Shown: positions 9,968-60,799, counted from the stretch's first letter. The stretch: 64,000 nt of DNA from Gnetum montanum (GCA_015680685.1 MNCI01000651.1:1913832-1977831), one strand, 5' to 3'. The notes: generated by a model from the sequence alone, not told the origin. Program-made: numbers and translations.

Positions 9968-9986
9968 TCCTTAGCAGCAATGCCAA
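9968..9986 (-). other. Primer-binding site, tRNA-Asp type (degenerate)
   Basis: Minus strand ttggcattgctgctaagga vs Athila consensus TGGCGCCGTTGCCGGGGA, differing by transitions; directly abuts the LTR. Confidence 0.75.
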
Positions 9987-13035: not shown

Positions 13036-13039
13036 TAAA

Positions 13040-36100: not shown

Positions 36101-36740
36101 GCACTCATGAGGCTTTCTATTTATTCCATGCATATTTTTGAATCTATCCTTTCATCTGTTGTCAGCCAATGTGTATCCTTTTGTTTTGTGGCTACTACAT
36201 ACAGGCACTTCTAAATAGTGGATGCCTTGGCATAATTTATGCATGTTTTCTACACACAATAACACCCTGGGTTATTGTACGTTATGCATGAAACTCACTT
36301 CTTCTCAACTTTTCCAACTTTCTTTTCCATGGAAATTTCTAAGAAGAGGTCTTAAAATCCCATCTTGACATCAATCATATTGAGCCAAGGACTTCCCATT
36401 ATAACAGGAAAGTTCCCCTTTTAGCTATCAACATGGAAAATCATAAAGTCTACAAGATAAAATCATCCACATATAGTGGTCATCATGTCCTCCACTAGTC
36501 CCAAGGAAATAGTAATGGACTAATCTACAAGCTCCAAACTAATATTGCATTTTCTAATGGAGGCAAGTTTTAGCTCTTGTAAATTTCCTATGAGATTATA
36601 TTTATTCTAGATGCTAAATCTAGTATATCCTAACATAGATCATTCTTGGAAATCTGCAAATTAATAAGGGGACTCCCAAGATCATATCATCTCTTAAGAC
36701 GATGACTAACATTAATCCAATCAGTAACCACATGAGTCAA
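33145..36740 (-). pseudogene. pol: pol of A2
   Basis: Same RT/RH/IN motifs as A1 (KFQMLWEGSY, WGIYFMG, YTTIEKEL, LMDDFF). Confidence 0.9.
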
Positions 36741-36799
36741 CATGATAGCATGTACATTAGAGGACATTTGGTTTAAAGGAGGCTTGATGGTTATTTTAA

Positions 36800-39300
36800 A
36801 AGTGATGATGTAGGTTAGCATCTATAGATGTTTGTGAGAGTTTTGGTGGACTATTGATCCTAAAAAAGTCCCTCTTTCAAGGTTTAGGTTCAAAACCACT
36901 TAGATGGCTATCAAGCTATAGGTTAACAATCCTCCTAGCATTTGTTTGTTGTAGCTATGATGTAATTTTCCCCTGCATAGGTGGAGCAACTAGTAAATGA
37001 GTTACATTAGATAATGTAGTGTTGGCTAATGGATAAGGAGGAGGATAAGTAGAGGAAGCATCAAATTGCAAAGTATGGATTCAATATTATTCTAAATGGT
37101 AGTAGTGATAATTGAAAGGATTGTAGCTTATAGAACCATGAGGAGATACAAGCTACTAGACATAGTGTCCATAGGGATCTAGTTACTAGTAAGGATACTA
37201 TTGCCTTGATGGTGGCATCCCCCATGACTATGGATTTACCATTGCTGATATTATTCCTGAGGTTGAGGTGAAGCTCCACTTAGATAGTACTATATTTTAT
37301 GGAACTACTACCTTGGATTACCCTAAGGATAAGGGAATCTCCTACGTAGTTTCCTTTTTGCAAATTTTGGTTACAAGGAATACATCCAAGATTCTTGTAG
37401 TTGCATCACAAGACAACATCCCTTGGGATGTTCATACTAGTAGATATTATATCCATCATCATCAGTTTCAAAATCTACAATCTCATTGACCATGGCAACC
37501 TTATATTTTTGTTGCGAATACCCCTTATCTATATCTTTCCTTCTTCTTCTATCTCATTTACTACTTTCCTACCTTCTCCTCTATAATATTCAATGTAGTT
37601 TAAAATTTCTCATCTAAGGAGTTCCACATTTTATCTACCTTGGTCAATATTTCAAAGACATATTTTTGTATTAGCAAGGTTTTCCTTTCCATCACCTCAT
37701 CTAATGGTGCTTCCTCCATTGTATCAAAGAAATGTACCTTCCTTTTGTGAAGGGAGGGATCTTTGTTATACTTCTATGCACTCTCTCATTTCTTCAACTT
37801 CTTTTCTTCTTTAGCTACATGTTCTACTTACCTTTGGATCTAATGGACTGTCATCTCAAAAAGTCTCCCTTGGGTATAAATCCTAAGAATTTCCCTACTT
37901 TTGTTTCAGAGTCCATCTATGATGTGGTAAAGTTTCTTCCTCTAAGAGAATCCATGGCCTAGGCATTAGTCGAATAAGGAGTAATAGCTATCTAGGGTCA
38001 CATCCAAGGATTCATGATTTCCTTGCTTTCATCCTTAAATTTTCTTTCATAGATTAGACACTCAAAAGTAGATCTAGTATTTTTCATTGAGCATTTTTAA
38101 CATCATACTCCATTAGCAGATGGATTCCAGTTCCAAGGACCAACATCAACTTTCTACTTTTTTATGACTGTTCTTAGGAATAATTTCAAATTCTTTCAGT
38201 CCTTCTTGATTTTTTGCAAGATGTAAGTATCATGGAAAACTTGCAAATCATGATATGGATTTGTGTTATACCCCACTTCAAATTTGAGGATATTTTTCAT
38301 ATCCAACCATTTGATTTTTCCATCCTTTTGGTGCCTAGTGGGAATTCTTGCTACTTATAAAACATTTAACATGTTTCTTGTAGGCAAAAATAGCTCATCA
38401 TAGGCATCACGCTAATGATGATATCTCCTATGATAAGACCTACTATCCCTTCTTCCATGGTGATATCATTTCTCATGTTTGTGTTGTCATCCATCCCTAC
38501 TTCTATCATTATGATGCAACCTCCTATCATCCTCATATTGATCCCAACCATCCTTGCTTCTATCATCATGATGTGACTTCCTATCATCCTCATCTTGATC
38601 CCAACCATCTCTGCTTCTACATCTACCATGGCTCCTCCTATCAAAATTTAATAAGGAAGATGATGGTGATAGTGAAAGACTAGGAGAATGATGCTTTCTA
38701 GTCCTTTTTCTTTGGACCTTATCCTTGTTCTTATTCTAGTTCTTTTATTAATCCTAATCCTTTTCTTTATAATTTTCTTTGTCCTTAGATGAATGACTAG
38801 GAGATTTATCCTTTAAGGTTCTTTGATTTTTGGACCCTATCTATTTATCACTAAGGTTCTCTAACATTGTTTGTGAAGGATATCCTCCTAAAAGAAGGGA
38901 GGAAAATTTGTATACTAAGAGTGCCTAGAAAAGAAATCCTTACCCTCTCGATGTGGCTATAGGAATAAGTATGGTGGAAGATGCTTTCCCTTCGATGCAT
39001 CATAGTGAGCCTCCATGTTTTCATTTCTACGAAGTTGGGCTTCTATAGGTTGATGATCCTTGAAGATGCTATCTGTCGATTCATACTTAAGCCCCACTAC
39101 TTCAAGGCCAAGCCTCTAGAGTTGGACCATAAGGATGGCAAGAACAAATAAATCTAGAGGTAAAAAGCTATTACTATCCATATATTTGCAATGTAATTTC
39201 TCATCCTAATGGAGGACGAATGTGATGTCTGGATAATAGGGATCTAAATGGATATACTTAACCTCTATCTACGATGGCTTCTCACTGATAGTCCTTTGTA
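36800..39300 (-). pseudogene. gag: gag of A2
   Basis: Colinear with A1 gag (YEHPKGCC knuckle, KNLKLFL capsid segment). Confidence 0.7.
38501..38620. repeat. 57-bp in-frame tandem duplication in the A2 gag spacer
   Basis: 38501-38557 and 38558-38614 near identical; encodes D/R/H-rich DGWDQxEDDR units. Confidence 0.8.
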
Positions 39301-40729
39301 TCCTCTCTTATTTTCTATTGTTTCTATCCCATGTCATGGAGAGTTCTTTTCTATGAGTAGAAGCCATTTCAAAATGCGCATAAGTGTGGCTTTGGGAAAT
39401 ATTACTATTATTATGAGAGATGGTTCATTATGTTCTCCTCACAACACTTGTATATAAATTCACTAGTTAATAATATTATGACAACTTAGCAAAACTAAGA
39501 TCCCTAGAAATGATGCCATGGTCAATGGTGGGTCTTCCCCATAGATGACCATATTAATCACAAGCATTTACTAATGATCTAATTGAATTTCATGGACCTA
39601 GTTACCCAAGTGATCAATATCCATAACAATGAATCATGGGGTTGTAAGATCATTGTTTTCCTAACTCACACTACTGTCTAATTTTTAAGTATGGTTATGT
39701 GTGAGTTAAGGCATATGATATATATATTTTTAAGTATTTTTATATTTTTTATCCAAACATCTAGATAATTGAGTAAATATTGAGCAATTAAATTTCTAAT
39801 TAATTAACTATTCTATTAACTAAATTATCCTAATGTGAAATAGCCATTCTTAATTGTTGTACACATTCCAAACTAGTATTAATAAAACTAGATTACCAAG
39901 TGGCTATTGCTGGAAATACCAAATATCCATGGCTAGGGTTACCAAACATTAACACTTTATGCTAGAAGTAGTCATACTCATGTGTTTAGGATTAATTATA
40001 TTGACTAATTAAAAATTTTAATGTAATATACATAGAAATTAAAGTTAAGTTAGTCTAAATGTTGTAATGGATGTAGGAAATCTTGATTTTATTTCCACTC
40101 ATGCCAATGCATTCAAGTATAGAGGTACTCAAATAAAACTCCATATAATCACTTAGATCCACATTGCAAGCACTCAAAGAGAAGATATTCTTACTCTAGG
40201 AAAATGAAACTACAAGAGTTTATCTAAGGTTACAATTGAAAGATGTCATAAATGTCATAGATGCATTCATTTATAGAAGTAATGATTGCATTAGCATCAA
40301 TGTATTTGCATCAACACATCCTACCATGCATCAACAGGGCTATGTCAACAAGAATGTGTTAATGCATCCTATCTTATCAATGTTTCATTACCAAGAATTA
40401 GAGGTCATACCAATATGGATTTTATAGGATCCATCTTATACTAAATTGATCCACATTTCATCTTATATCCATCTTATAATATTTCCCTAGCTACATTACG
40501 TTCTCTACATCGAAATTTAGAACAAATTAAAACCCTTAAGTAAGAAAGATTAATTTATTTTCCTCTTCATGAATCATAAAAGTTATGAGCCAAAGGTCTA
40601 AGATGATGGGCTAGAAAAATGTTTCCAATTAAATATTTCAAATGTTTCAAAGTCCAAAAATTCCACAAATTTTCCAAAAAACCAACAAATATATATTTGA
40701 TCTAGGCATCTCTAAAGGCTAGCTCTTGG

Positions 40730-40968
40730 TTATTCTTATTGCTAAAGGAATATATCGAGAGGCCTTGAAATAACATCACTACTATTATCAAATTATCCTT
40801 TTAATTATTTAATATCTAAATATATCACAAATGTTTTTGAAAAAAATCCAAAGGGTATATATTTTATCAAGGAATTTCTAAAGGTTAGTTCTTGGTTATT
40901 ATCACTACCAAAGGAACATATTGATAGGTCTTGGAATAACCTCACTACTATCATCAAATTATCCTCAT
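40730..40968. repeat. Two ~78-bp direct repeats about 160 bp apart
   Basis: tcttggttatt...aaagga.atat.ga.agg.cttg.aataac.tcactactat.atcaaattatcct at ~40724 and ~40889; probably LTR-internal. Confidence 0.6.
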
Positions 40969-43900
40969 GATCCCAAATGAGCCATTCATCAGAGGTCTTT
41001 GTAATAGCCTCACTACTAACATCCTTAGTAGTTGAGATACACATATCATTGAAAAAATAGATCTTGACTATGCCTCACCACATATCACTAGATTCAACTA
41101 CTAAGTACCATGGTCTCAGCCAGTTTCCCAACCTCACATGAACTTACAAATCAAAATCCAAGGTAGGAAATCCATCCAAACCCTTGTTCTTGTGGGGTAA
41201 TTCTCACTAAAGAACACTCTACTTCTACATGTAGGCAAAGGCATCTAAAAGATTTACAGCTCCCACTACCAACTAAGTAAAATTAGTTACATAAATATTA
41301 TTTATTCCAAAAACCAAAAATATTTCAAAAAATAGTTCAAATTCAATAATAGCTAAAATTCCATAAAAATTCTCATAAAATCATGTTTATATCAAGAGAT
41401 AATCCAAAATCATCATAAAATATCCAAGAAGGAAGTTGGGCAAAGTTTTCAAAATTCCAAAAACTCACTAGAAAGATAGAAATATTCTAAACAACATTAA
41501 AATACTAATTTCCATATAAAAAAGGGTTCAAACTAACAAAACTTTGGCAAATTTTTGGCATAATAATTAATATCATGAAAAAATAATGAAAATATAGAAA
41601 AAAAAGAAAGTGTAAGTTTATTTCAAAATCATTTGTCTAAGTTTATTTCTTTTCTCTTCCTTCTAACTAATACCCTGAACATCCAAATACTTGTAACAAT
41701 CATATATGGACTCTAAATCAAATTTTGTTTAAATCTACAAAATCTTTATCAAGTGCACTACATGACCCTATGCCAAAATCATATTTGAGCTTTATTTAGC
41801 ATAGTGGCCTACTTTAAATGCTAAAGCATTTACAGTATTTTTAGCAAACTAAAAATGTGATATGTTAAAAACTATAACTCCAATTTTAGTAAACCAAGCA
41901 TCACAACTAACATTTTTAAACATCTTGGACATATCAATATTATCAAATTCCATGTCGTCCATCATTCTAAGTTACTTCCTCAATAAAACTAATTTACAAA
42001 ATATCTAATTTTAATTAAAAATGAACTCCAAATTCTAGTTAATGATTATAAATGACAAGAAATATGGTCTAGATAGGATCAGGATCCAAAATTACTCCAT
42101 AAATAGAGTATTATATTATCATATGTGTATAATATGAATAAAATATGCATAAATAAATGTGCATGATAAAGAATAAATGTCCATAGTGAATTTGCATAAT
42201 AAATTTTGAATATAAATAAGTAAATATGTATAAAGAATAAAATATGCATTAACGAATACTTGTAAAGGCATTATAACTGACAAAAAGGAAAAATTTCAAG
42301 GGTAATTAGATTTTAACATTTGATCATAACATATAAATTAGATATATGATTAAATGTCAATAATAGTAAAAAAAGGATATAAAACTTTAATAAAACACAA
42401 GCAACTTGCATTCACTTATGTAGAAAACTAATAATAATAATAATAGTAATGATAGTAATATAATCATATGATGTAACTAAGAAAATTAGATCTAATCTAT
42501 TAAAATGCATATGAAAGCATTAAAGAATTAGTCACATGCATTAAATTCAATAACTAAACCTTTACAAACTTTTAGGTTATGACATCCTCTTCTCCTTCAA
42601 GAATTTTTCTCCTATAAAATGTGGGAAAATTTAGTTCTCATATCTGCCTCAATTTCCCAGGTTACCTCTTGATTTCCATGTCATTCCCAAACAACTTTAA
42701 CCATACAAATTACTTTACTCTATAATTGTCTTTTTTTTATATCTATGATTCTTATGAGATAGTTTTTGGTAAATAATATTTGGTTATATATCTATTTCTT
42801 CACATTGTATAACATGGATTTAATCTAGAACATACTTCTTTAAGAGAGAAACATCAAAGACATTATGAATTTCTCCGAAACTTGGTGGTAATGCTAACTA
42901 ATATGCTACATTTCCAATCTTCTTAACTATTTCAAATGGACCTATATATCTCAAAGCTAATTTGTCTTTCTACTCAAATTTCTTTAGTCCTTTCATACAA
43001 ATACCTTCAAGAAGACATAATCACCAACTTGAAATTTAAGAGGTCTTCTTCTAAAGTTAGCATACTTAGTGTATCTATCCTAAGTAATCTTAATATACCC
43101 TTGGGCTATGAAAACCTTCTTTGTGGTTTGATCAATCAAGTTTTTTCTTAACAGCATTCTATCCTTCATTGTAGTCCAATAAATATGTGATCAACATGGC
43201 CTAACATAGAGTATCTCATAAGGAGTAGCTTTGATACTTTCTTGATAACTATTTTTATATGCAAATTTTTCTAAGGATAGCATCTCAACCTAATCTTCCT
43301 TATATTGAAGTGAACAAGTCTAAAGCATGTCTTGTAAGATCTAATTTACTTGATCTATTTGCACATCCATTTGAGGATGATAAGCAAAACTTATATTTGA
43401 TTTAGTATCCAAATATGCTTGAAATACTTGTCAAAATCTTGTATATAAACCTAAGGTCCCTATTAGATATTATCTTAACTAGAATCTCATCTAATCTAAG
43501 AATCTCCTTAATAAATGACTTAGCAATATCCTCAGTGGTTGTAGTGGAGTGGATAGTAAGAAAGTGAGAAGATTTTATTAAGAAATCCACCATTATTAGT
43601 ATAACATCATGTTTCCTTCTTATTGTTGGTGACCGTTTGGGACGTGACCACCAACGAGTGTCCTCGAATAGGATTTAGGTGCTTGCTAGTCTTTGGCAAC
43701 ACCAAGGCCCTTATACCTCCAAATAGACTCAGTAGTTAATGTGAGTATGTTTGTGTGCTATTGCGGCGTGTGGTTGTGAAAAATGAAACGATTGCGTTGT
43801 GTGTAAACTATGAATGACTTATCTTAAAGAGATTCAGCCAACTTTGCCAAGTACTGTGAGTTGTTGAGAGTTCCTATTTTGTTTAATTGCCTAGTCTATG

Positions 43901-44889
43901 CAGTCCTTCTAATACCTACTTGTAACAAATAAAATTTTGCAAAAAAAATTTGAGCACAACTCTACGAATCTACTTTTAATTTTCCCTAGAGAAAGAGATA
44001 GTTCCACAAGAAAACTAGAAATAGAGCAAGATTCGATGGAAATAGATAGAAAAGAAAGTAGATTTGCATGGACCTCAAATATTTAACAAGGTAAAATGAC
44101 ACGAGTAAACACTTCGCAATAAAGCTATCCCAAATTCAATATCTATGAATTGTTCAAACTTCCAAGGCTCAAATAAGCAATTTCTTCAAGACAATCCTAC
44201 TATGCTACCAAAAAATTGCTACGTAAACTATCTCCTACGAGACTCCATTTTGGCTAGATAATGGATATCAAAAGTTGCATTCAACAGAACCTTTAAAAGA
44301 CTTGACAATTCCTGATTGAAATACCATGGAGATTCACTTTAAAGATAAAAAGAAGCTATTTTGGTCCCATCAAAATTCCAAAGATTTTCTGAACCCTCTT
44401 GACTATTGAATTGTTCAACGGCATGACTACAAGCAGAGGCTCTCTTCCAACAATCCCAATAGCATTTCTTATATGTTGCACAATAATAAAATTTACTACT
44501 AAAATGCTCTTAAGGCTTTTAAACACAAGTGCTTCTATGGAAAAATTTTAATAGAAATTTTCTATCAGGCAACAAGAACAATAAGAGCAATCTAAAAATC
44601 CCAAGATTACTCGCCAAGGATGATACTATCTAAACCACTAGCTAGACAATTTAAACAAAATAAAAATAAAACATAACTCACAGGACTATGACAAAGAGGC
44701 TGAAATCTTTTCTTTAGCAAGCCATCTTATAAGCAATCATTCACAATTTCTTCTTTACAATGCTCTTCTCCCAAGACTCAAAGTGTGTCTCCAAGTGAGA
44801 GCCCAAGTGTCTTCTCAAAAGTGTGATATCCCCTTCCTCCCCCCCTGAAGCCTTTTTATAAGGTTCAAAAGGTAGGTAGGTAAGTTACA

Positions 44890-45170
44890 AAATATCTTGG
44901 GTGGTTATAACCACCATAGAGATAAAAAAGCTGTAGGTGAAAAGTGTCCTATTTAGTTGCCAAATGTCTTCATTCAGTTGCCAAGTGGCCCCATTTAATT
45001 GCCAAGTGGTCACCATGGAGATAAAAAGGTTGCAGTTGACAAGTGTCCCATGCAATTAACAAGTGGCCCTTCAGTCGCTAAGTGGTCACCATGGAGATAA
45101 AAAGGTTATAGTTGACAAGTGGCCTTGGTGGTGGTTATAACCACCATTTCAATTGACAAGTGTTCAATTC
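44890..45170. repeat. Short degenerate tandem repeats immediately upstream of the TATA box
   Basis: Recurrent ttgccaagtg / ttgacaagtg and ccatggagataaaaagg units. Confidence 0.7.
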
Positions 45171-45769
45171 ACATGGAACTTTAAATAATTTTTGCAAAAA
45201 TTCCCTTTTTAAATCATAAAATATTTTATTTTTATTTACATCATAGTAGTAACTATCATAGGAAGGTACAACTTCCATATGAATAAAAGGGATAATAGTC
45301 AAATGTCTCTTTGTCCCTAAATAATAGGTGTTTGTTGTTTTTCTAAAAAAAATCTCATTATCACTGAAAATTATACCACTTGCTAACGTCCAACAACTGA
45401 AGTAGAGAAGGAAAGAGGTCCAACAAATGATGCAGGTGTGGCATGCCCTAGGAATTAACAAATTTGCAGCAGCAACAAAGCTCACATGAGGATGTTCATG
45501 ACTCGTTAGTTGCAGGAGTGGAGCTAGTGGGGACCATAGGAGATGACAGTGGTGTCATTAGGGCTTGATGCAGGCCATGAATTTTATTCACTTGAAGCAT
45601 TCATTTTGTTTGCTTCAGCTAGGCAAGGCTGAGCAACGTGTGGTTGAGTGCATCAAGCGCAAAGAAGAAGGGACTCTAATCAGAAGCCAAGCTTAGATTG
45701 CGATGCTTGATACATTGATGCTCCTTCGTTATAAATCTGTCCATCAAGAATTGCAGAGCATTTTTTTGC

Positions 45770-46060
45770 ACTCTCGAATTTCGACATTCTCGGGGTCACC
45801 GGGGAATCACGAGAGAGCATGGGTGGCAAAAACCCTAATGATGGGGGCACAGACACAGAGGCAAAGTTTCACAACAGAAATAATAGCATCCCAGGCCTCA
45901 TTGGAAACCTTGGCATCATCGCGGAGGCATAGTAGAATTTTTGATGAAAAAAGGTAGGCACAGAATCTGATGGCCTTGCTGGCCGCATCTGTGCAAAAGA
46001 GAAGAACACCGAAGAATTCCTCTAGAAATGCATCGCACTCATCATTCACACCGCCATGAT
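45770..46060 (-). pseudogene. CAP-G: Captured fragment of condensin I subunit CAP-G (N-terminal HEAT region)
   Basis: CDAFLEEFFGVLLFCTDAASKAIRF...LRDDAKVSNEAWDAII..VKL.....PIIRVFATHALSxFPGDPEN resembles recalled plant CAP-G FLEDFL..LL....AAN..ARFR...LPDDAEVSNELWDEVI..MKLR..DK.P.IR.FAVRALSRF.ND.EN. Confidence 0.75.
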
Positions 46061-46276
46061 CGTATTTTCCTATTAATCTACATGAATTGCTGATAATTGT
46101 GATCAAAAGACCGGAGATAAAACTATCGTCTCCGAGGACATTGACATACAGAGCAACTCCAAGGCTCCTCATACTGTTAGGGACCTGATTGTGAGGCTGC
46201 TCAATAGAGGTTTTCATTGACAAGAACCATATCCTCCACATCGGATCTACTTCTGGTCATGTATAAAATTCAGGAT

Positions 46277-47205
46277 AACCATTGTCCCACTTTCTTCTTT
46301 GTATTCATCATGCAGAGCATTCAAATCAAAGAATGTCCAACCAGTGGAATCATCAAACCAAAGCAAGAGTTACTTGGCTTTGCAATGTTCACCTTCTTGT
46401 CAAGCCATAGTCTTACAGCAAGCACATCAACTGCCCCCAAATTTAGGACATTAACAAATTCCTCCCTTTGCTATAGAATTGGGCTATTTTGAATGATTTG
46501 TTTCAATGTTAATAATCTCCTAAGTCCATTGAAACAAATCATTCAAAATAGCCAGTACAATAGCTTCGGCTGAGAAATTCTCTATTCCGCAAACTACTAC
46601 TGATATATTTCCATTGGTTTCATCAATTACAAAGTTAGTTACTCTTTTATTGGACAGAAAATGACACCCTTTTGTCTTTAGGAGATGAACCCAAGGTCTG
46701 AAAATTTTCTCATGAACCATTCCACAACACCAAAGAACATCAAAATCTTGCTGATGCACAACAATGAAATAGTAAAACATTCCCAACGTTGTAGCTGCAC
46801 TGCATTGCTGCCTTGGAGCAAACAGTTCAACAAGAAGCATTGGGTTCAAAGCATCCTTGTAAACTCTCTTAGAGCAACCAAACTGCTTGAACAATTCCCT
46901 TGCAGTTTACTTATCATACTTTTCCAAGCACTGTCACTGTTATCAAAATTAATCACTAGATACATCAACATCCATCAATGGAAGTGAAGTCAAACGATCT
47001 TGTAAGGATAAATGTTTGAACTATGGATAGACAAATGAGCCCAGAGGACTAGGAAAACGAGGGAGATGTTGAAATATTGGTGATTCAACCTCAAGTCCGT
47101 TAGGTGAATACTGAGCCAAACGAGACCAATTAGTGAAAGGCTGTAAGCCTAGTTCTTGTGTGAGAGAAAATATATTACGGTATGGATACCAAAAACCATG
47201 AATCC
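46277..47205 (-). pseudogene. Captured intronless fragment of a FAD-dependent amine-oxidase / carotenoid-desaturase-like oxidoreductase
   Basis: IHGFWYPYRNIF, AQYSPNGLEVESPIFQ, DRLTSLPL, DFDNSDSAW, FKQFGCS, LFAPxQQCSAATTLGM, HQQDFDVLWC, EKIFRPW, VLAVRLWLDKKV, GWTFFDLNALHDEY; continuous over ~930 bp with few disablements. Confidence 0.85.
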
Positions 47206-48885
47206 AAACCTGTTTCATGAAATGGCCAACATGTGCCAACACGTATCTTTGGTAATTCCAAAATGAACTTCATGTTAATAATCTCCTAAGTCCATTGAGG
47301 TATATCATGAATATGAAGTAGTCCTCCTAGTTTCTGATGTTTAATTTTAACTCATTAAAAAACTAATCATTTGAAATAAATTTAGCTATCTCTTACTTCA
47401 TCTTAGGCCACCAATATTGTGTTCTTAAGATTTAAAATATTTTCTTACCTCCAAGATGCATTTGATATCTATTGGTATGAGCCTCCTCTAGCAATTTCTA
47501 CCTTAGCACTTTGGGAACATATAATTTGTGTTTAAATCTTAACTCATCCTTTTCTCCTTTGGGTAAATAATTAGAAGAAATATAAATTAATTTCTAAAGC
47601 TTTTCTTGAAAAAAATAATCTAAATTTTGTTCTTTAATAATATCATCCAGTAAACTTAATTGCATGACCAAGCTATTTATCTTTCAAGTCTTTCTACTAA
47701 GTGCATCTGTTACTACATTTAAATTTCTAGGATGATATTTAATATTAAAGTCTACAAGTAATTCAATTCATATTCTTTATAAAAATTTTAATTATATGTA
47801 CATCATAAGATATTGAAAACTCTTATGGGTTTTCCATAAAGTTAGTTTCTCCCAGATGAGAGGCAAGTAGTCCCTACATCCAATCATAAGAATCACAAGC
47901 ATTCACTAGCGATCTCGTCAAATTCTATGGACTTTAGTTCTCCAAATGCCAATGGCAAAGATAGTGATCTACAAGTGCAATCATTGTCTTCCTTGCTACA
48001 CTTATGTAAGCACAAGTGTATGGCTAATTGGAGCCAAGAAACATGATTTGTGTTAATTTTATATTTTTATATGACTTAATCTAAGTGTAAGATAAAGTAA
48101 TTGGTTAAGAATTAATCTAAGTAATTATCTAATGTCTTAGCCTATTTCCTAACATATGTATCTTGTCCCACCTTTCGTACACGTGCTAAATTTGTTAAAA
48201 CACTACTAGGTTACCTAGTAATAACAGTGCTAGGATTACCAAGCATTAATGTTATGCTCGAGGCAATCATACTTATCTGTATTAATTAAGTGTATTTAAT
48301 TAACTAGAAGGATGAAAGTAAAGCGCATGATTAATAAATTTCATAAAAGTAAACATTAATTTATTTCCAAGTGCTGCAAGGTATTTCAAGAATCTCATCT
48401 TTATTACCATCACATCAATGTGTCTAGGTACATTGGTGCTAAAATAAGGATCCACACAATTCTTAACTCCTACTACAACCACTTAGAAAATATTCTAATT
48501 TTTTTAGAAAGAAACTACAAAAACATCATTATGATACTAAATTTTCAATGCCATAAATGCAGTGGATATGCACATTTATATAGGTAGACTCATACATCAT
48601 GTCAATGCATCAACTCATGGGTCGATGAGGATGCATCAACATAGCTCAACAATGATGATTCATCATACCTTCACAACTAACTAAAAACTCATCCTCGAGT
48701 GAACAAAATTAGGATCAAGCTTTTTACAAAGTCTAGAAAGGTATGAAACCATAGACTGACTAACTGACTTGTCAAATTGTATGCATTTACAATGATTACA
48801 AAAATTGATGTTTAGGAGACAAAATTGAACATCCTTACAAAATTAATAGTTAGAACTCCTTTGATGGCCAAAGATGAAGAGAAGA

Positions 48886-51740
48886 TCAAATAGTGCTAGG
48901 AGGTGAAGGCTCCTGGGATACTAATAGACCTTCTTTGATCTTCGGTATCCATGGTAATGGTGGTTCAAGTTGAGGCCATTATGGTTGTCCTACTGTAGCT
49001 ACTACTTCTGGTGAAAGATGAAAGGCATCCAACAGTGCCTTCATCTTCTTCTACTTACTATGAGGATCATACATGGTTCATGTAGCATCACCAATGTGAG
49101 CTAGTACAAGAACATCCCATAAATAAGGCATGGCCAAAAACAACTCCTTGACATTCACGAATTAGACAATGAATTGTTTACATTCAATGTTAAACATCTT
49201 GATAAGGTTTTGGAGCTCCTAGAAATCATTCATTCTTTTGACCAAGTTCTCTATTACTAATCATTGATCTATGAAGTGAGTTCGAAGAACTTCAAGCTTT
49301 ACGTTAGCTATTTCCAACTTTTTCATCATGTCTTTGTGGTGCTTAAACTTTGCCTCATACAAGAGGTATGATCTTTTCACTTGTTTCTCTAGATCTCACT
49401 GTGACCTTTCGATAGTCAACATTGTCAAGTTTACATATCAAAGATTGGATAATTCCATGTACTCAATCATCTCCTTAATATATAACTCCTTTAGGTAGAT
49501 TTCAACTTTGTTTTATATGTTTAACCCATCAAAGATGGGTTGCCATACATTGCCTCCTTGTTGGATTTTTTGGAGGGCCTCATTCACTTTTGCCTTCACC
49601 AATTGAATGTTTTTTTACATTCACCTCCTTGAGAAGCCCAACGTGGTCCCTATACTAATTCTTTACTCATTTAAATTTTAAGGCCTCATTCTTCTAGGTG
49701 GCTACCTAAATTACTATTTTCTATTAAAGGGCATGAACTTCCTCCATCAAGAGATTTAGTAGCCATCCTCCTCAAATCCATGTTCACCTTGACAAGCTCC
49801 TCTTGCTGCTGTCACACAAATTCCACAAGTTGATCTTTTTTTGTCTCAAAATTTCATAGGTGGTGAATTTTCTTAGTTAGAGCTAGATTCTCCTTGTGGA
49901 CTTTTGACAACTCCTTATCAATGTTGTAGGTTATGGCCTCTACTAAGTATTGGTTGAAGATCACCATCTCCTTTGCATTCTCAGACTCAATGAAGTCTAT
50001 TTTAAAGTTGCAAGAAAGCTTCATCTCTTGTTACTACTTGGCTAAGAATGGTGGGATCAACTAATTGGGCTCTCAATTTTGCAACCTTAGTAGCCAACTG
50101 TTTATTTTTTGATGTAGTTGCTTTGAGTTGGACATTGGCAATGGTGAGCTTGTTTTAGCCTCTAGTAGCTCTGACTAGATAGTAGTGATGTTATCTGGGA
50201 GATCAAATATCTTCAAAAGCAATTGCTTGGTCCACACTAGTTAGTCCAACATCTCCTTATGCTAGGTTTCACTTAGCCTCCCACTTACACTTGTGAGCAT
50301 CTGCATATTTCTAAGTGCAACAATGTCCAACACAATAGCTGCATGAGTGTTTAGTGCCTTTGCTACGTAATTGGCCATCACCTTTACTATTGTCTCCTAT
50401 CCATGGTGCTATATCACCAAGACAATTGCTCCCTCACCCTCGTCAAGGCTCATCAAAAAAGTGGAAGCATTCCTAGAGATCTCTATGAATTGTTGTTATC
50501 CTTGGATGGACACCATCATCTCTTAGGCACTTAGATTTAACCTTTTAGCTTCTTGCATTGTTTGTGCAAAGGACACCGATGCATTCTTCTCCAACCAACT
50601 AATGGTTTGGGTAGCTTTGTTGAGATGACTCAACATTGGTCAATAGATTAAAGGTTTTCCACCACTTGGTCCTTCTTACTACTACTATAGAAGTTTCTCA
50701 TAGAGCTTTTGCATACACTTGAACATAGCAAGAGCATCCAAAATTATTTCTTGAGTATGTGGTATTGGTGGTGGTCATTTCTCTTCTTACAAATTGACAA
50801 ATGCTTTGTCCTTTATCATCTCCTACCAAGATGTGGCAAGAGCATGAGAAAGCACATAATTGGCAGAATAGGCTATGCCTCCCCTATTTCATACTTTTTT
50901 TATGAGGAATGGAAAGAAAAGTATCTTCTTCCCATGCTCATTCTCTTTAATCCTCTTTTCAATCTCCATGAACATAAGCTATAGAAGGTTAACAGGGAAT
51001 TTTTTTTCTTAGAGTGGTGCATGTGCAAGAAAATAAGATTGTGATTTTACTTATCTCCACCATTGGATTTAGGTGATAGGCCATGACTTTGAAATACACC
51101 CTCTCCACCTTAGTAAGTGTACCATACTCCTTATGATCCACTCCATAGCACCGTTGGATCCATTCTTTCTTGACTTAGAGGTTCACCTACCTTTAAATCT
51201 TAACCAAAGCTACTCCAATGTCTAGCAACCTAAGGGCCTCTAAAATGACCTCAACCAAATAGGATATACTAATGTCCTTGATCTTGACTGTGGTATCTAC
51301 TTGCCTATTGTCCTAAAAGAGGTACATCTCTCCCATGTACCTATCCCCACTAGAAATGAGGATAGGCCACATGGGAGAGGTCTATACTTGAGTTTTTACC
51401 TCTTCTAGCATCATGTCCATGAAGGAACCAAAATTAACTTCTTGAAGAACCAAACTTTTGATCTCCTTAGTGCCAATTTATCATAAGAAGGCCTTGGTAA
51501 AGGTGACCTTGAAATTCATTCTAGGCCCAAGCACCTTGTCTGAGTACAATGACTAATTTCAGCTATGGGAATCTAGTGAACAAAGTCCACTTTAGGATCC
51601 TCCCGAAGAGGTCCCATTACATGCGTTTCAGCTGCTTCTTATTGGGGATGCTATGGCTACTAGCCCCTTCTTCCTATTTTTCATTCATCCCTTAGTTGAG
51701 ACAATCCTTCCTCCTATGGTCTTTTGGGTCTCAATGTCAT
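48886..51740 (-). pseudogene. Extra (env-position) ORF of A3
   Basis: Colinear with 28318-31125 from start (MTLRPKRP) to end (EPSPPSTI*). Confidence 0.7.
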
Positions 51741-54364
51741 CTGTAATCACAACATAACCAAGAAATAGATTTTAATGTGTAACTTAGAACACTTTGATAC
51801 CTTGTCTTCTTGGCCAGTTACACTTAGGCTAAGTTGTGATTATGGTAGATTGATTATTTTAATATTATTTTATTTGAATAGCTACCCAAGTTCATTGGTA
51901 AGGTTTAACTTACATGAGCTACTAATTTTTAATATTATTTTATTAGTTATACCTTATGGAAGTTGGAAAATTTTTTAAAAAAATTTCATCAGAAACCATT
52001 GGTTTGTGATCCCCATGACATAAAGCTCATCTCCAATAGCTATAGGATCAAAGAATGAAGTGATTTGGAAAAGAGATTAAAAATTTGTGGGCTTGGGAAT
52101 GCTCTGGGCTCTAAAAATTACAAAAACTCCCTTGGTGTTTGTGAGAAAATGGCAAAACTTGGCTAAGTGTCAATGGGTATCTATAGTATTTTTTTGGTGC
52201 ATTGATGGGGATGCATCGATCCAAATAAAAAAATAAAAAAAATTTCTATTTAAAAACTAAATAAAAACAAATATTTTTTCCATAAAATTGGAGTCCAAAC
52301 AAAGCTAGAAAATTCTAGAATAATTGGAAATGCTTGAAGAGGGCTTGAAATGCATGACAAATGGAGATCTCTAGGAAATTTAATGTGCAAAGCATAAAAA
52401 CTAGAAGCAGCACAATGAGAAATTTAAGGTTTTAAGAGAAAAATGGCTAAGGGATAAGGAGTGTAACCATCCCAACCAAGAAGTATGTAAGTGGGTGTTG
52501 GCGACTGTTTGGGACGCGACTGCCAATGAGTGTCCTTGAACAGGATTTAGGTGTTTGCTGGTCTCTGGCAACACTAAGGCCTAGATACCTCCAAATAGAC
52601 TTAGTAGTTAATGTGAGTATGTGTGTGTGTTGTTGCGGTGTGCGGTTGTGAAAAATGAAATGATTGCATTGTGTGTAAACTACAAATGACTTATCTTAAA
52701 GCCCTTCAGCCAAATTTGCCAAGTACTGTGAGTTTTTGAGAGTTTCTATTTTGTTCAATTTCCTAGTCTATGCAGTCCTTATAATACCTACTTGTAACAA
52801 ATAAAATTTTGAAAAAATATTTGAGCACAACTCCATGAATCTATTTCTAATTTTCCCCAAAGAAAGAAATAGTTCCACAAGAAAATTAGAAATAGAGCAA
52901 GATTCAATGGAAATAGAATGGAAAGAATGCAAATTTGTGTAAAGATCTCAAATATTTAAACAAGATAAAATGATATGAGTAAACACTTTGCAATAAATCT
53001 ATCCCCAAATTCAATAACTATGAATTTTTCAAACTTCCAAGGCCCAAATAAGCAATTTCTTCAAGACAATCCTACTATGCGACCAAAAAATTGCTACGTA
53101 AACTAGCATGTACGAGACTCCATTTTGGCTAGATAATGGATGTCAATAATTTCATTCAACAGAACCTTCAAAAGACTTGAAAATTTTTGATTGAAATATC
53201 ATGGAGATTCACTTTAAAGATAAAAGAAGTTATTCTGGTCCCATCAAAATATCAAAGATTTTTTGAACCCTCTTGACTATTGAATTGTTCAACGGCATGA
53301 CTACAAGCAGAGGCTCTCTTACAACAATCTCAATAACGGTTCTTATACATTGCACAATAATAAAATTTACTACTAAAATGCTCTTAAGGCTTTCGAACAC
53401 AAGCGCTTCTATGGAAAAATTTTAATAGAAATCTTCTATTATGCAACAAGAACAAAAAGAGCAATCTAAAAATCCCAAAATTACTTGCCAAGCATGATAC
53501 TATCTAAACCACTAGCTAAAAAATTTTAAAAAAATAAAAATAAAACATAACTGATAGGACTATGAAAAAGAGGCTGAAATCTTTTTTTTAGCCAGTCATC
53601 TTACAAGCAATCTTTCACAATGTGTGACCCCAAGTGTGTGCTAGTAGTCCCCAATATCCATTTCCTCTTACCCCTGAAGCCTTTTTATAGGGTTCAAAAG
53701 GTAGTTACATATTTCAAAATATCTTAGCTAAAGTTTCTCCCAAGAAAGGAAGTTATAACTTACCCAACTAGTTAGGAGATATTTCTTGAATCTAGTTAGG
53801 AAGTTATACAAAAAATTAGGAGGAACTTATGCTAACATTGACATTTGTAAATATTACAAATATTTTATAGGCAACAACCTATACAATAATTTTTGAAAAA
53901 TAAATTCAAGACCTCAATCTTATGAGAGCTTCATTCAATTTCTATTTTAGGATTTTTAAATTCCCATTGTGTATAAAGCCTTAGTAATTCACTCGGGATA
54001 ATTAAATTAATGATAGGTCTTTAACAAGGGCTTCATACTATTATCGTATGTGAGAAATTGCCAAAATTATATTTTGACCACTAGACCATGTGAAATTGAA
54101 ATTTTATTTCTATAACTTCAATTTCGCACGTTCGGGTTTTGTATTTGTCTTCAGCGATGAATAAATTACAACTCTGATTTATCAGCATTGGCTAAAACAT
54201 CTCCTGGTTCTGCTAATTCGGTTGTACGCCTTTCTTATTGTGCCTTCATGTCTCTATTGCCGCATTCAATGGATTGGTATGGCTATAACAAATGCGTTGG
54301 CGTCAGGCACTGCTGCTATTTTTGATAAGGTTATTTGCAAGTTCACCATTGCAAAGTCTTCTCT

Positions 54365-54465
54365 TAAAGTAGTTTTCTAACTTCGAACATATCCTTTCAT
54401 TTGGAATGCATTTTAATCGAAGCGGTTCTAATAACGATATCTGCATTAAAACCCTTTCAAAAATC
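54365..54465 (-). pseudogene. Possible short PPR-gene fragment
   Basis: KGFNADIVIRTASIKMHSKxKDMFEVRKLL resembles PLS-PPR G...D..I.TALI.MYSKC.....ARKLF. Confidence 0.45.
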
Positions 54466-54724
54466 ATCCGATGATAACTGAAAGTTGTTATGCCCCTTCG
54501 AATATACATGTTAGGAAGCTGTTCAAGCAATGAGATGGAACCAAAACGCAACAACCAAAATGTATTCCCACGCATTGCCAATGAAATTTATGAAACAGTG
54601 CAGAGGCCAATAGGGTTTGATGGCATGATGATGATGTAATCACTTCTTAGCTGCACATCATAGACTACCATGTAGAACAAGAGCTCACTGATGTAGTTGC
54701 AGTGCTAGAGAAGGGGCTAGTTTA

Positions 54725-54975
<251 letters not shown>

Positions 54976-54979
54976 AGTA

Positions 54980-55145
54980 AAAATATGATTATTTGGAACG
55001 CCATGATTGGGAATGGACCGAAAGCTCTACAACTTTTTGGGTGCTTCAAAAAATCAGGGATTCAACCTAATTAGATTACTTTCGTTCATGTTCTGTTTAC
55101 TTGCAATCATGCAGGATTTGTGCACGAATGATTAATTTTTCAATC
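54980..55145 (+). pseudogene. Captured PLS-class PPR fragment
   Basis: IIWNAMIGNGPKALQLF...KSGIQPNxITFVHVLFTCNHAGFVHE. Confidence 0.8.
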
Positions 55146-55164
55146 TTTGGAGAGAGGCTTCAGA

Positions 55165-55370
55165 ATAGTTGACGTCGCCTTCAAAGTTGTTAAATGATAA
55201 ATTTAAAACTTGAAGAAAAGTAAGCTTGGACAAAGACTCTGGAATAGGACCCGTAATCTTGTTATGAGAAAGACCCATGTTCTCCAACTATGTAAGCTTG
55301 TTGCCCAAGGATTTTGACTGGTTCCCATTAAAATTGTTGAAGGAAAGATTAACATTGACTGCATTCAGCC
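55165..55370 (-). pseudogene. Captured extracellular LRR (RLK/RLP) fragment
   Basis: VNLSFNNFNG...LGNKLTxLENMGLSHNKITGPIPESLSKLTFLQVLNLSFNNFEG matches the plant LxxLxxLxLSxNxLxGxIP consensus. Confidence 0.85.
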
Positions 55371-57027
55371 ATTCAACAATATGAATTACAATGTTCCTGT
55401 TTAATCAATGCAGAAATAATTTTACCCTGCACCACTGGACTACTAAATTTTTGTTGCTGCAGAGATATGCTTTCCTGAAATAAAATGGATACAAAACCAA
55501 TTTTACCTTAGATGCTCTTTAATTTGCTACATATTCATATCATATAAATGATACATATAAAAATTGGACTTCCTCCATAATCTTGCTAGACTTTGGTTCT
55601 GTAAAGCCCAATGTATCATAATATATTTATATATCTATATTGCTACCTTGTAAAATGCATTGCTCAGAGATTCATAAGCTTACTATAGGAATGGTGCTCC
55701 TATATATTTCTTCCTTAAATTAAAAGAATTTTTTTGTTAAGTTATTCTTTTTCTTTCAAATTGAAATTTTTTCCACTTCTCCAAAAACTTTTAACCAATT
55801 TAATCCTGCCAACCTGCTCCATGAAATGGCCAAATGTGCCAACAGTGGATCCTCCCCATAGCAAGCTTATGCTCTTAATGTTGTTGCATGCCCTCAAACC
55901 AAGGAGTTTGTGGGCCCTAAGGATGATTAATGGTTAAAGATTGTTAAACACCAAATCACCCAAATAAATCATCAAAGAATTTTATTTTTTTACTAAATGA
56001 ACCCATCGAAACATTCATGAAAAAGAGATAGTGAGGTGATTTTTGAAAAGAATTGGTGGATGAGAGAGAGTATGGAATGGAGTTCCCCATGGTGGTCACA
56101 TGAAGTCTCTTATGGAAGATGTGATTAAGTATGAACTAATAACTTCCTTAGTCCAAATCAAGACCATCCACTTCTAGTGACTTTTCATCAACACCTTAGA
56201 TCATTCCATCCCCCAAGGTACAAGAACATCCCCACAAACCACTCATCATTCCAAAAGAAGAAGAAAAGAAAAGCAAGAAGTGAAAAGGACCTTAGTTAAA
56301 GGGATGCCTTCAAGCATGGGTAACATGCCTTTTTAGCCTCATAACCAACGCTTTTATCCAATTATTATGTCTAAAGAGTGTGCTTTGAATTTCCATAACT
56401 TTTTTTTTTCAAATGAAAACCACACCATGCAAAGACATTGCTTCCTATTTATTGTCCTATAATGGAATGGTGAGAAGTCCATGGAAATACTCATGTATCT
56501 CAAACAGCATGTAGGTACAAAAGTGATAAATTCCTTTGAAGTCACACCCTTGTCCATCAATTAATTTGTTCCAAGTTTGAAAAAATACAAAGGTCATCAG
56601 TTCATTATAAATTGTTATTAATAAGGGACCTCATATTTCCAAAACAAGGAAACATCGTAGAGTTGAGTGGAGTGATGGATGACATGGACTCACTGCCTAT
56701 TAACATGAAAAGAATCAATGTCCCATTAGTAAACATCAAAATTCTAAAATGAAATCTAGCCATTTGCAATCAAGTAATCAATAAAGTTTAAACCACCACC
56801 GATAAGCAGCTATTGTTGGCACGAAAGTCCTTATGGAAATAAAGAAAAATAAATAAATATAAGAAAATTTCAAATAAAGAAAAATATATAAAAATCATAA
56901 AATATCTAAGAAAATGAAAAAAATACTAAAAATGATGTAAACAAAAAATTTAAAAATTGAGAAGCCATTTTATAAGATCTTAGCATGGATGGTCATCTCC
57001 TCCATAACTAAGTTGGAAGGGGGAGAT

Positions 57028-60000
57028 CTCAAAGATCAAGCATGCTTAACCATCTATTGAGGCATTGTGTTCACTAGTTACTCATTGTTCATGAAAAGAC
57101 TCTATTTATTAAGTGTTGACTAATGATTTTTTATTTGGGCTCTTAGAGTGGTAGATCAACATGGGCCCAAATGAAAAGGTATCATCGATAATGTAAGGGC
57201 CCTTCCATAGCATTTGAAATTTTTTTCATTGAGAAACATGCATGGGGTTCTAGTAGAGCACCTTATCACCTAGTTGAAATTTAACTTTCCTAATCCTAAG
57301 TTCATGTTATTGTTTATTGTATGCCTTGTGCACTTTGTTTGATCATAGGACCACTAATTGATTCTCATCTAGCACATTAAGGTTCATCAATCTTTCTTTT
57401 CATGCTAGGCTTAGGTCCAAGTCTAGGTTACATGTAGTTGAAAGCATATGGAGTTCTACTTGGATAGGAAGTATTGGGAGCTTTTCATACATGAGCTCAT
57501 AGGAATAGTATCCCATAGGAAGTTTTCATGTTGAATGATAAGCTCAAAGGGAATCATTAAGTTTAGAGCTCCAATCCCTTCTATATTTACTAACTATTCA
57601 TATTAGTATTTTGGTTATCTCCCTATTAGTAACCTCGACTTGACCATTCTCTTGGGATGGTATGTAGTTGTTAATTTATGCTCGACCCCCAAGCACTACA
57701 TGAGTTTATGAAAAGTGGCATTCATGAAATGTGTACTGATATCAAAATTAAGTATACATGGCACCCCAAATCTATTTACAACATGATGTATAAAGTAGGC
57801 TACAATAGATGATGTACAATCAATGACAATCACAACTTCTACCCATTTTGTATAATAGTCAATAGCTATAATTATATAGGTCTTTCCATTAGATATGGGG
57901 TTGATGGGCCCCATAAAGTAAATTCCCCAAAGGTCAAAAGGCTCTAATGGTTGGATCCACTATTGGAATCCTTCCATATCAGCAATCATCACCCTATCTT
58001 ATTGGCACTTGTCATAGAAGCAAAAGAAGTAATAGGTATCTCTAAAGAGTGTAGGCCAATAGTACCTTGCCATGAGAATCTTAATTAGCATTTACATCCA
58101 AACATAGGGGCCCCCACAAGGGCCCTCATGTGCATCTTAGAGGACTCACAGTTTATTCATATCAGGGGCACACCATCATACTAGAACATCTACACAAACC
58201 TTGTAAACATTGCCATTAATCTCCGTGAAGTGTTTGTCCTAATGAAAAAAACTATTGTTTCTTCTTGTGATCCCACCCCTATGACATCTCCTAAGTAAGT
58301 AGATAGGATAAGATGTCCTCATACTAATTAATTTATTTAGGGCCTTATTCAATAATATCACTAGCAAAAAGGAGTTCATTAGGAAACTTGTCTGATAATG
58401 GGATCTCCTCCTCCTTACTATCCCATCATAACCAAGACAAGTGATCAGCAATCACATTCTCAGTTCCCTTTCTATCAATCATTAGTAGATCAAACACTTG
58501 TAGGATCACCTACCACTGAATGACCTGGGGTCTCAGCATTGGTTTATTCATAAGGAATCAAATAGCACTATGGTACATGTATAAAAACACTTTATAACTA
58601 AGCACATAGTACCTGAATTTCTCCAATACATACACCACTATCATCAACTCCTTTTTGGTGGTGGTGTAGTTAATCTATGCATCCACAATGATTCTGCTAC
58701 CACAATGAATGTAGTATGGACATTTCTTATCATCTATCTATGTTAGCATGACCCCTAAGGCATAGTTTGAGTCATTTGTCATGATATGGAACGGTCTAGA
58801 CCAGTGTGGTGCTCATAGAATAGGAGTTTCTACAAGCTTCTACTTGAGTTTTTGGAATGAGTTCTTGCATTTCTTAGTCCAAATAAATGAGGCATCTTCC
58901 TTTGCCAACTCCACAAATGATTTGATGATCTTCAATAAGCTCTCGATGAAGAGCCTATAGTAACCAATGTGTTCAAGGAATGACCACATATCTTTGATAG
59001 TCTCTATTTTCTTGGTGATTCCTTGGATGATCCTTACTTTTTCTAGGTTTACCTTGATCCCCTTCCTTGAAATTTAGTGACCCAAGATAATGCCTTCTTG
59101 GACCATCAAATGGCTCTTTTTCCAATTGAATCTTAGGTTGTTCTCCACACATCTTTGAAGCACTTGTTCCAAATGATCCAAGGCTTACTCAAAGATGGCC
59201 CCATAGGTAGAGAAGTCATCCATGAAGACTTTCACCCAGCTACTAGTTTTCTATTGAAAGATACTAAGGAACAACCATTGGAACGTAGTAGAAGCATAAA
59301 GGCATCTTTGTGTATGCAAAAGTCCCTAGGAACTTGTGAATATTATTTTGGCCTAATCCTCTAACGCTATCTAGATTTTGTTATAGTAATTATAACCATC
59401 TAGAAAACTATAGTAGAAATGCCCTACAAACATATCCAACACTTAGTCCACAAATGACAATAAAATGTGATCTTTGTAAGTCATCATGTTCAACAGCCTA
59501 AAATCTATATAGACCCTACACGTCCCTTCTTTTTGTGGGACTATAACAAGTTGGATAACCCACTCACTATCTACAATTATATAAATTAACCCTACCTTGA
59601 GGAGTTATTCAATCTTCTCCTTAATGATCTACTTGAGCTTAGGGTTCAATAATTCCTGTAGCTATATTTTTGGTTTGATGGAGATGTCTATGTATATTCT
59701 ATGATGGCATATCCTTGGACCAACTATAGTGAGTTCAATATATGACAAGGCAAAGGCTATTGGCCATTTGTTCATAACTTCTAGCAACTTCTTCTTTTGT
59801 TCATGATAAATTATGGCATTAATGATGATTGTCTTATCATTGTTTCAAAAGGAATACTCCATGCCTACTAGTAAATCCTTCAACTCAAGGGGCTCCTACT
59901 TGAAAGTCTCTAAGATCTCCAACTCTCCCCAATTAATTTCACCTTTTTCATTAGAGAGTTAGTGATGGATTTTCTCCAAGTGATCCATACTCTCCACATA

Positions 60001-60700
60001 AGAGCTTGTGAGGCTCTCAACTAGTTCAATGCACATTGTGGATTTAACCTCTCTTTTTATTATCAACCACTAGGTGTCCTCCTATTTAGTGGTTGCTACA
60101 TACAAACACCTTTGAATTGTAGCAACATTAGCATACTGACTACATGCCTTAAGGGATGTGCTCTTTATAATACATAGTCTTTGCATGTAGTAGCACCCTG
60201 TGTTATTGTACAAGATATATGGAACACACTTTTTCTCAATATTTCCAAATTCATTTTCCTTGAAACTTGTCAAGGAGATATCTCAGATTCCCAACTATGC
60301 ATCAATTGTACTCATCCATGCTCTTCCCATGATAATGGGGAAGTTCCCCTTAGCATTCTCCACATGGATTACTAGGAAATTAGTAGGATATGACCACCAA
60401 TAAACAGTGATCACAATGTCCTCAACCAATCCCAAAGGAACAATGATAGATTGGTCTACTAGTTTTAACCTTATATAGCTATTTTGCAAAGGAGGCAAGT
60501 TCTAGGCTTTGAACATTTCTTGTGAGATCAAGTTAACTCAAAAACCTAAGTCCAAAGATCTTTTCAAGGTTTATTTTTGGAAATCTGAAAATAAATAAGG
60601 GGACTCCCAAGATCATATCTCTTCATGGGAAGATGGTCAACCTTAATTGAATCAGTGACCACATAGTCAATTGGGGAGTGTTTTGGTTTGAAGGAGGCTT
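57028..60700 (-). pseudogene. pol: pol of A3
   Basis: MGPINPISNGKTYIIIAIDYYTKWVE, FMDDFS, FPIIMGRAW, WKGPYII motifs. Confidence 0.9.
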
Positions 60701-60799
60701 GATAGGAATTGCAGAGGTGGTAGAAGTAGGGATCATAACCAAAAGTATCTATGAGTGCTTTGTGGGATTGTTGGTTTTGAAGAAGGGTCTTTTGCATCA

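Follow-up and report, generated by a model that had tools for sequence, protein, structure and literature searches.

The window analysed here, a stretch of 64,000 nucleotides from Gnetum montanum (GCA_015680685.1 MNCI01000651.1:1913832-1977831), contains two insertions of one repeat family, which we call E1 (43624–47241, 3618 bp) and E2 (52496–55844, 3349 bp). Both read on the minus strand, and both are likely solo long terminal repeats (LTRs). Each is bounded by TGTTGG...CCAACA, with a terminal inverted repeat (TIR) of the TG...CA type that spans 6 bp in E1 and 7 bp in E2. Each is also flanked by a 5-bp target-site duplication (TSD) matching at four of five positions: CTTAT (43619–43623) and CGTAT (47242–47246) for E1, GTGGG (52491–52495) and GTGGA (55845–55849) for E2. 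The chance of at least four matches in five is 0.022 in each case. An initial annotation of the window had proposed these ends and duplications and a clean splitting of older elements by both insertions; all were found where it had placed them, and both insertions interrupt a gypsy-type element.

E1 sits in the integrase gene of its host element, with Integrase_H2C2 in the right flank and SH3_Tf2-1 in the left, both on the minus strand, and DNA contigs join position 43620 to 47298 in two of two DNA runs. The right junction (47176–47300) is covered by contigs with 0 differences in DNA runs X2 and X4, which come from two studies and two organism labels; misassembly is therefore unlikely there, with the reservation that X2 is possibly the source of the window itself. 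The site of E2 is non-coding and lies downstream of pol in another element of gypsy order, whose reverse transcriptase, RNase H and integrase domains are found at 57500–60499. In its right flank, homology to two paralogues in the window resumes exactly at 55845; in the left, agreement with one paralogue extends, by eye, over the last ~15 bases only. Parts of E1 are present in 20 sequencing runs under seven organism labels, with no RNA run on record among them.

What do the two copies share? Their alignment identifies a conserved arm of 1.27 kb in total, about 90% alike, which covers 43624–44898 in E1 and 52496–53725 in E2, on the minus strand in both, and presumably corresponds to R-U5 plus the core promoter. 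Its main part (43624–44747 versus 52496–53621) is 89.7% identical over 1128 columns, with a Kimura two-parameter distance of 0.106, and the adjoining TATA block (44826–44898 versus 53654–53725) is 83.8% identical. This block holds a TATA-like box, TATAAAAAGG on the minus strand at 44851–44860 in E1, conserved in E2 at 53680–53689, which is a putative promoter. Upstream of the box, E1 carries tandem repeats of its sub-family (44892–45171; seven copies of a 21-nt unit and three of a 58-nt unit) that may form an enhancer array. At the other end a minus-strand terminal block, 47207–47241 in E1 and 55811–55844 in E2, is flush with both element ends (91.4%, E 4.5e-5) and is the candidate att end of U3. 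Outside arm, TATA block and terminal block the alignment of E1 with E2 found no similarity.

The earlier description, about 1.2 kb shared on the left and 35 nt on the right, thus holds for this pair; in many other members the shared right end is longer. Contigs that leave E1 at 47207 continue like E2 55781–55810 (minus strand, delimited by eye from contig loose ends) in four of four DNA runs; compared by eye, three runs agree at 25–26 of 30 or 18 of 22 letters, and X2 less well. Since most of the contigs listed exit 47207 in this manner, E2 appears to keep the common sub-terminal form, which the cargo has replaced in E1.

Between TATA box and terminal block lies the variable cargo. Read on the minus strand, E1 consists of the terminal block, an amine oxidase fragment, an NRT1/PTR fragment, a CAP-G fragment, two unnamed pieces, the repeat array, the TATA box and the arm. 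The named and RNA-matched pieces make up 1423 of 2308 bp of its variable part (62%, including one unnamed RNA-matched piece). The largest is a 928-bp fragment of an amine oxidase/FAD oxidoreductase mRNA (46284–47211, minus; E 8e-96), broken by stops and frameshifts, which runs 5 nt into the terminal block. It is about 95% like host RNA. None of 29 selected proteins is more than 68% identical to it, and in a tree it groups with a Welwitschia protein among gymnosperm sequences (support 90/93, below the tool's star threshold), which makes a gnetophyte host likely. A metagenome scan with a moss orthologue gave 80 loci, of which 79 are contiguous matches of 63–70%, probably cyanobacterial, and one is transcript-like.

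Next to the oxidase, protein comparison places fragments of an NRT1/PTR transporter of the POT family (46083–46211, minus) and, in frame with it, of the condensin subunit CAP-G (Cnd3; 45777–46070, minus, one stop). The two are fused in one stop-free frame of 149 codons (45807–46256, minus), which may be chance or a trace of selection. The top match of one protein search, P0172, is a repeat protein and was discarded as spurious. A word-based protein search returned no match for this frame or for 45559–45741, and a further search against the PDB found none. Other copies of the stretch exist at ~85% identity; RNA cover over both pieces is near zero, which carries no evidential weight. The first unnamed piece, 77 bp at 45362–45438, belongs to a well-expressed host transcript whose sequence departs from E1 at either edge, as 224 and 184 poly(A) reads and one contig show by their loose ends. 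The second (45559–45720) has its left edge from one RNA contig and an approximate right edge.

Within the oxidase fragment, 46482–46553 holds a perfect inverted repeat of 27 bp, with a loop region copied from the plus-strand stretch 47272–47298, a part of the gypsy-type integrase in the flank of E1. The source of this filler is 766 bp away and outside E1, the donor RNA has other letters at this site, and one contig of DNA run X2 carries it. The feature is best read as the scar of a double-strand-break repair that took place after insertion.

Several observations suggest that the oxidase cargo was copied from a spliced messenger. The RNA data come from run X17, an oligo-dT poly(A) library that is not strand-informative and whose status as an RNA run is a guess. 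One of its contigs is colinear with 46550–47211 (34 other letters and 11 gap letters), a second with 46284–46485, and raw reads repeat the contigs' three exits into further donor sequence (28, 29 and 35 reads). Isoforms of orthologues from Tasmannia, Magnolia, Ceratopteris and Sphagnum break at positions corresponding to ~47197, 47089, 47020 and 46906, the break at 47089 being common to Tasmannia, Magnolia and Sphagnum; some isoform pairs show no break at these inferred intron sites. Short genomic open reading frame (ORF) calls in Sphagnum add a site at ~46751 and two more in the second part. The cargo runs through all of these sites, five of them within the stretch that is colinear with host RNA, and three of the five inferred junctions end in AG. 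The CAP-G cargo is likewise continuous across one site near 45940, where six short CAP-G predictions begin. A weak hint of an intron comes from one DNA contig (depth 13.5, side 27) that skips 46297–46392 with GT..AG ends, starting at an inferred exon border. To judge from the orthologues, the oxidase cargo thus looks like a partial, intron-less copy of a spliced mRNA. At the one junction where an overlap between donor and terminal block can be tested it measures 5 nt; the other junctions are known on one side only. Only one of 807 RNA reads is at least 99% like E1, and transcription of the E1 copy itself is therefore not established.

E2 carries a different set of host pieces in the same position: a PLS-class PPR fragment (54358–54480, minus; a weak match, E 5.8e-5 summed over the repeats of a designed PPR protein), a P-loop fragment of RUVBL2/TIP49 (54851–54967, minus; E 1.9e-6 in Pfam, E 2.2e-9 in another search), a second PPR fragment (54982–55104, plus and thus antisense to the element; PPR_2, E 3.6e-4, below the curated Pfam cut-off) and a leucine-rich-repeat fragment (55171–55356, minus; LRR_1, E 4e-8). 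The RUVBL2 and plus-strand PPR pieces begin back to back, ~15 bp apart (54967–54982). Together the named pieces account for 549 of 2085 bp (26%), leaving ~74% of the variable part without a name. The view that the variable segments are largely host coding fragments is thus shown for E1, but in E2 only for these 549 bp. In Pfam searches long six-frame reads matched in two of 18 frames, missing the oxidase, CAP-G and NRT1/PTR pieces, and short windows matched in two of 37.

Counting both copies, there are seven named host pieces, three in E1 and four in E2. All are partial, most have stops or frameshifts, and six of the seven lie in sense to the direction of the TATA box (P 0.06). Does the cargo bring ends of its own? 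At 12 tested cargo boundaries there is no TIR, no TSD or flanking repeat above background and no poly(A) tail, and none of the 33 CTRRT sites in the variable parts has the GC hairpin of a Helitron. The initial annotation had named Helitron or MULE termini at the cargo edges as part of an objection to its own view, and at these boundaries that part is not borne out.

How abundant is the family, and was the cargo multiplied with it? In DNA runs X1 and X4 the summed contig depth reaches 0.49–1.26 million over the arm (43606–44733), roughly 1000 times the flanks; short contigs that overlap inflate such sums, which cannot be read as copy numbers. Along E1 the sum falls to ~135,000 near the TATA box and 24,000–88,000 over the repeat array, and in X1 and X4 to 140–3,250 over the cargo, with flanks at 366–1,022; in the terminal block it is 25,000–144,000 (bin 47206–47230, four DNA runs). 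Such a nested hierarchy of copies is what would be expected of U3 turnover. A rough reading would put the family at ten thousand arms or more, with each cargo present in tens of copies.

Given the inflation of sums, single contigs are the safer guide. The exact contigs of the E1 locus have depths of 4.7–12.4, a contig of depth 119 spans cargo and terminal block, and a variant of the oxidase with a deletion from 46646 to 47170 reaches single-contig depths of 396, 476 and 128 in three of four DNA runs. Moreover, 425–699 contigs fall on 745 bp in each of the four DNA runs, and the oxidase cargo is multi-copy in DNA under four species labels. These many copies and the shared deletion variant indicate amplification after capture: the cargo was probably copied along with the element, across species labels, and we infer that its copies moved as elements. 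Taken together with the spliced look of the cargo, this probable amplification favours an RNA route.

We therefore consider it reasonably probable that E1 and E2 are solo LTRs whose distal U3 took up spliced host mRNA by template switching of reverse transcriptase. After the first strand transfer, during minus-strand synthesis, the enzyme would copy R and the promoter, switch at short matches to host mRNAs packaged with the element RNA, and rejoin that RNA shortly ahead of the att end. Only products that keep promoter and att end would proceed, so the stretch between them would be free space. The new U3 would then be copied into both LTRs, and the lineage could multiply to tens of copies and be overwritten again. 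Recombination between the long LTRs would leave solo copies between the original TSDs, and the cargo would decay afterwards. By default the cargo is taken as a set of neutral passengers, ahead of the siRNA, camouflage or exon-shuffling roles that the initial annotation suggested; silencing of donor genes as a side effect is possible.

Repeated capture of host sequence within the U3 of an LTR family had been proposed from the start. That the cargo is exchangeable and host-derived, that ends and promoter arm are conserved and that the family is very abundant is borne out by the E1/E2 alignment, the protein matches and the contig depth. The LTR status itself is unproven, since no LTR pair, primer-binding site (PBS) or polypurine tract (PPT) was seen. 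The TG..CA ends, the TSD, whose 5 bp lie within the 4–6 bp usual around a solo LTR, the outward TATA box with its upstream repeat array and the nested upstream turnover do fit a U3-R-U5 layout. The evidence for a mode of action like that of LTR-mediated retroposition is stronger than the evidence that the unit is a solo LTR.

A number of observations weigh against this reading. Neither E1 nor E2 has a partner LTR in the window or a direct repeat at its ends, and no PBS or PPT appears among the contigs and reads that run past the ends of E1. Past 47241, 19 contigs share no consensus (agreement 0.52–0.62, versus 0.48–0.58 expected for unrelated flanks), which is expected from solo copies and stand-alone elements alike. 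Past 43624, 34 poly(A) reads follow mostly one sequence (agreement 0.75, versus 0.39 for unrelated flanks), whose dominant form has no PBS-like start; its source may be a single expressed locus, or else an internal region that is conserved but has no standard PBS. There is no AATAAA or AATAAT downstream of the TATA box in either copy. No donor exon-intron edge appears among the 24 loose ends listed of 87 in the DNA contigs, and because the introns are deduced from other plants, with the host donor gene itself out of sight, the donor could be intronless. One PPR piece of E2 is antisense, the sides of the deletion-variant joint measure only 28–30 letters, and summed depth overstates abundance. 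The repair scar indicates that DNA repair, too, adds templated sequence to these elements. Finally, the whole copies compared are E1 and E2, both chosen for their cargo, and the comparison with reads and contigs covered E1, not E2. Among further results, poly(A) reads on the arm show no pile-up of starts or ends in a library that is not strand-informative, a 27-nt arm pattern has 0 matches in metagenome and viral contigs, no right-end-to-left-end joint, as of a circle, is among the 15 joints listed of 61, and Rfam has 0 matches in the window.

The alternative that survives best regards the 3.3–3.6 kb unit as a whole non-autonomous element, mobilized in trans by an integrase-type enzyme, and not as a remnant of recombination. 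It could be a DNA 'Pack' element or an LTR-only unit that gains cDNA or processed pseudogenes in gap repair. The lack of any visible PBS, PPT or pair agrees with it, as does the depth of the arm, so high that solo LTRs would need very many full-length parents. Plant integrase-like DNA transposons with TG..CA ends and gene fragments do exist, as the accessible text on GingerRoot describes (PMC6839031), although that element has TIRs of 100–150 bp and a 6-bp TSD as against 6–7 bp and 5 bp here. Moreover, the ends of the unit are very asymmetric, with a TATA box and a repeat array pointing outwards, and a spliced, mostly sense cargo is unexpected from capture at the DNA level. We hold this alternative to be unlikely.

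Quite unlikely is a further alternative, in which E1 and E2 are solo LTRs that were already in place when cDNAs, retrocopies or other members of the family supplied the cargo through gene conversion or the repair of double-strand breaks. On this view replication did not produce the cassette, which would be a scar of repair that conversion has spread. The E1 scar with its template in the adjacent flank, the antisense PPR piece and pieces as short as 77 bp speak for such an origin; against it, up to four organism labels contain multiple copies of the same cargo, of its junction with the terminus and of a derived deletion, and in both E1 and E2 the cargo avoids arm and att block. Filling by DNA-level repair does not explain the multi-copy, spliced cargo.

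Distinctly improbable, again, is an LTR-only mobile element with no internal region that has its own promoter, passes through circular or head-to-tail forms and borrows reverse transcriptase and integrase, with tens of thousands of copies and a different spliced-mRNA mosaic in each lineage. If true, it would be a retro-counterpart of Pack-MULEs, invisible to finders of paired LTRs. A secondary nested insertion of the cargo into an ordinary 1.3-kb solo LTR, as a Pack-MULE, a Helitron or a processed pseudogene made by a LINE, is very improbable and for E1 and E2 largely refuted: gymnosperm transposable elements (TEs) of all classes bear gene fragments according to the accessible text of PMC13477047, but the 12 boundaries lack every signature looked for, and the E1 cargo replaces the sub-terminal sequence of the family rather than interrupting it. 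An assembly artefact or chance similarity, a thought suggested by the repeat-rich genome, is scarcely credible given the exact contigs that bridge the right junction of E1 in two studies and the TSDs and clean splits of both copies.

How does uptake of mRNA into U3 by template switching, the reading we favour, compare with known systems? Pack-MULEs have long TIRs and TSDs of 8–11 bp, which are seen neither at the element ends nor at the cargo edges. Helitrons carry a GC-rich hairpin before CTRR and make no TSD, and here the hairpin is missing at all 33 CTRRT sites and TSDs are present. TRIMs, LARDs and retrozymes have paired terminal repeats with PBS and PPT, and retrozymes a hammerhead ribozyme; with no paired repeats and no Rfam match in the window these were rejected as well. 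GingerRoot resembles the present family in its multi-gene cargo and, in some elements, TG..CA ends. From the accessible text, with TIRs of 100–150 bp and 6-bp TSDs for GingerRoot and TSDs of 4 bp for Ginger1 and 6 bp for Ginger2 (Cerbin et al. 2019, PMC6839031), an identity with GingerRoot or Ginger is ruled out by the 6–7 bp inverted repeat and the 5-bp TSD.

The closest parallel is LTR-mediated retroposition, including maize Bs1 (Tan et al. 2016, PMC5131818), where the two LTRs stay and the ORFs between them give way to a retrocopy. As far as the accessible text of that study goes, the two have in common partial spliced mRNAs, chimeras of several genes and repeated copying. Switch points there show short matches with a median of 6 bp, to which the 5 nt at one junction of E1 may correspond. 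An intron-less mRNA copy (with inferred introns) and its further copying are thus found here as well; replacement of internal ORFs is not. Instead, within a single TG..CA unit, the cargo of E1 and E2 has an att-like end on one side and a TATA-like box on the other, and theirs seems to be a far larger family.

A second parallel concerns U3. The Tnt1, Retrolyc1 and Retrosol sub-families exchange their U3 and conserve the rest (Manetti et al. 2007, PMC1838419), and BARE-2 has an LTR chimera that took in a piece of retrotransposon (review, PMC13317346). Shared with the present family is that sub-families vary in U3; template switching can bring foreign sequence into an LTR. The variants described in the accessible texts are, however, short and regulatory or derived from retrotransposons, whereas E1 and E2 hold kilobase mosaics of host mRNA. 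Members of the Tnt1 superfamily are recognized by homology to the RNase H, linker and LTR of Tnt1; neither E1 nor E2 has a coding region attached, and the resemblance is one of layout only.

Capture by TEs takes place on a large scale in gymnosperms: Gnetum montanum has 62,348 host TEs with 2,348 donor genes, and Welwitschia has 41,078 host TEs, in a study that also discusses an idea of epigenetic conflict (Bao et al. 2026, PMC13477047). That work counts by TE superfamily, and its accessible text names no family like E1/E2 and no placement of fragments within an LTR; LTR examples are the subject of its Figure 7E. In maize, 425 intact LTR elements carry gene fragments, none from more than one gene (Baucom et al. 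2009, PMC2774510). These, too, are LTR-type carriers that amplify host fragments, but, judged by the accessible text, they differ from E1 and E2, each of which lacks an internal region and combines pieces of three or more named donors. Capture of host mRNA inside U3 appears in no title or abstract start that we found, with most subscription papers and bioRxiv supplements outside the scope of the search. Capture within the terminal repeat itself thus seems to be barely described.

Known gene capture by LTR elements concerns the internal region, which is lost upon recombination to a solo LTR. A capture in U3, if true, would be doubled in each round, survive the formation of solo LTRs and be free of the constraints of packaging and priming, and so abundant a family could become a dispersed, heavily copied library of host exons. 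Annotation that takes intact LTR pairs as its starting point misses units of this type, which would be mistaken for pseudogenes; solo-LTR counts in gnetophytes do start from such pairs in the accessible text of PMC8275611. Such units would yield thousands of dated template-switch junctions, and with them one could test directly, in a giant gymnosperm genome, if captured fragments increase methylation of the genes they came from.

The window holds further elements. One, at 11034–16444 (plus), is framed by a pair of 574-bp LTRs that are 83% alike; it shows a PBS-like start, now decayed, and a run of purines ahead of the 3' LTR. It has no evident gag-pol frame and contains an intron-free, broken Exo_endo_phos stretch (~14270–15450, E 2.8e-5), which we take to be CCR4/nocturnin-like; it looks like an ordinary internal capture of the Bs1 type. 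Three older, related elements of gypsy order have paired LTRs, at 770–10841 (87%), 27216–40331 (78%) and 47866–64000 (84%), and E2 is nested in the last of these. A decayed copia-type gag (Retrotran_gag_2, E 1.2e-15) is found at 20152–21342 (plus), and self-comparison of the window shows degenerate tandem or near-tandem repeats at 12840–13224, 18178–18635 and 40653–40965.

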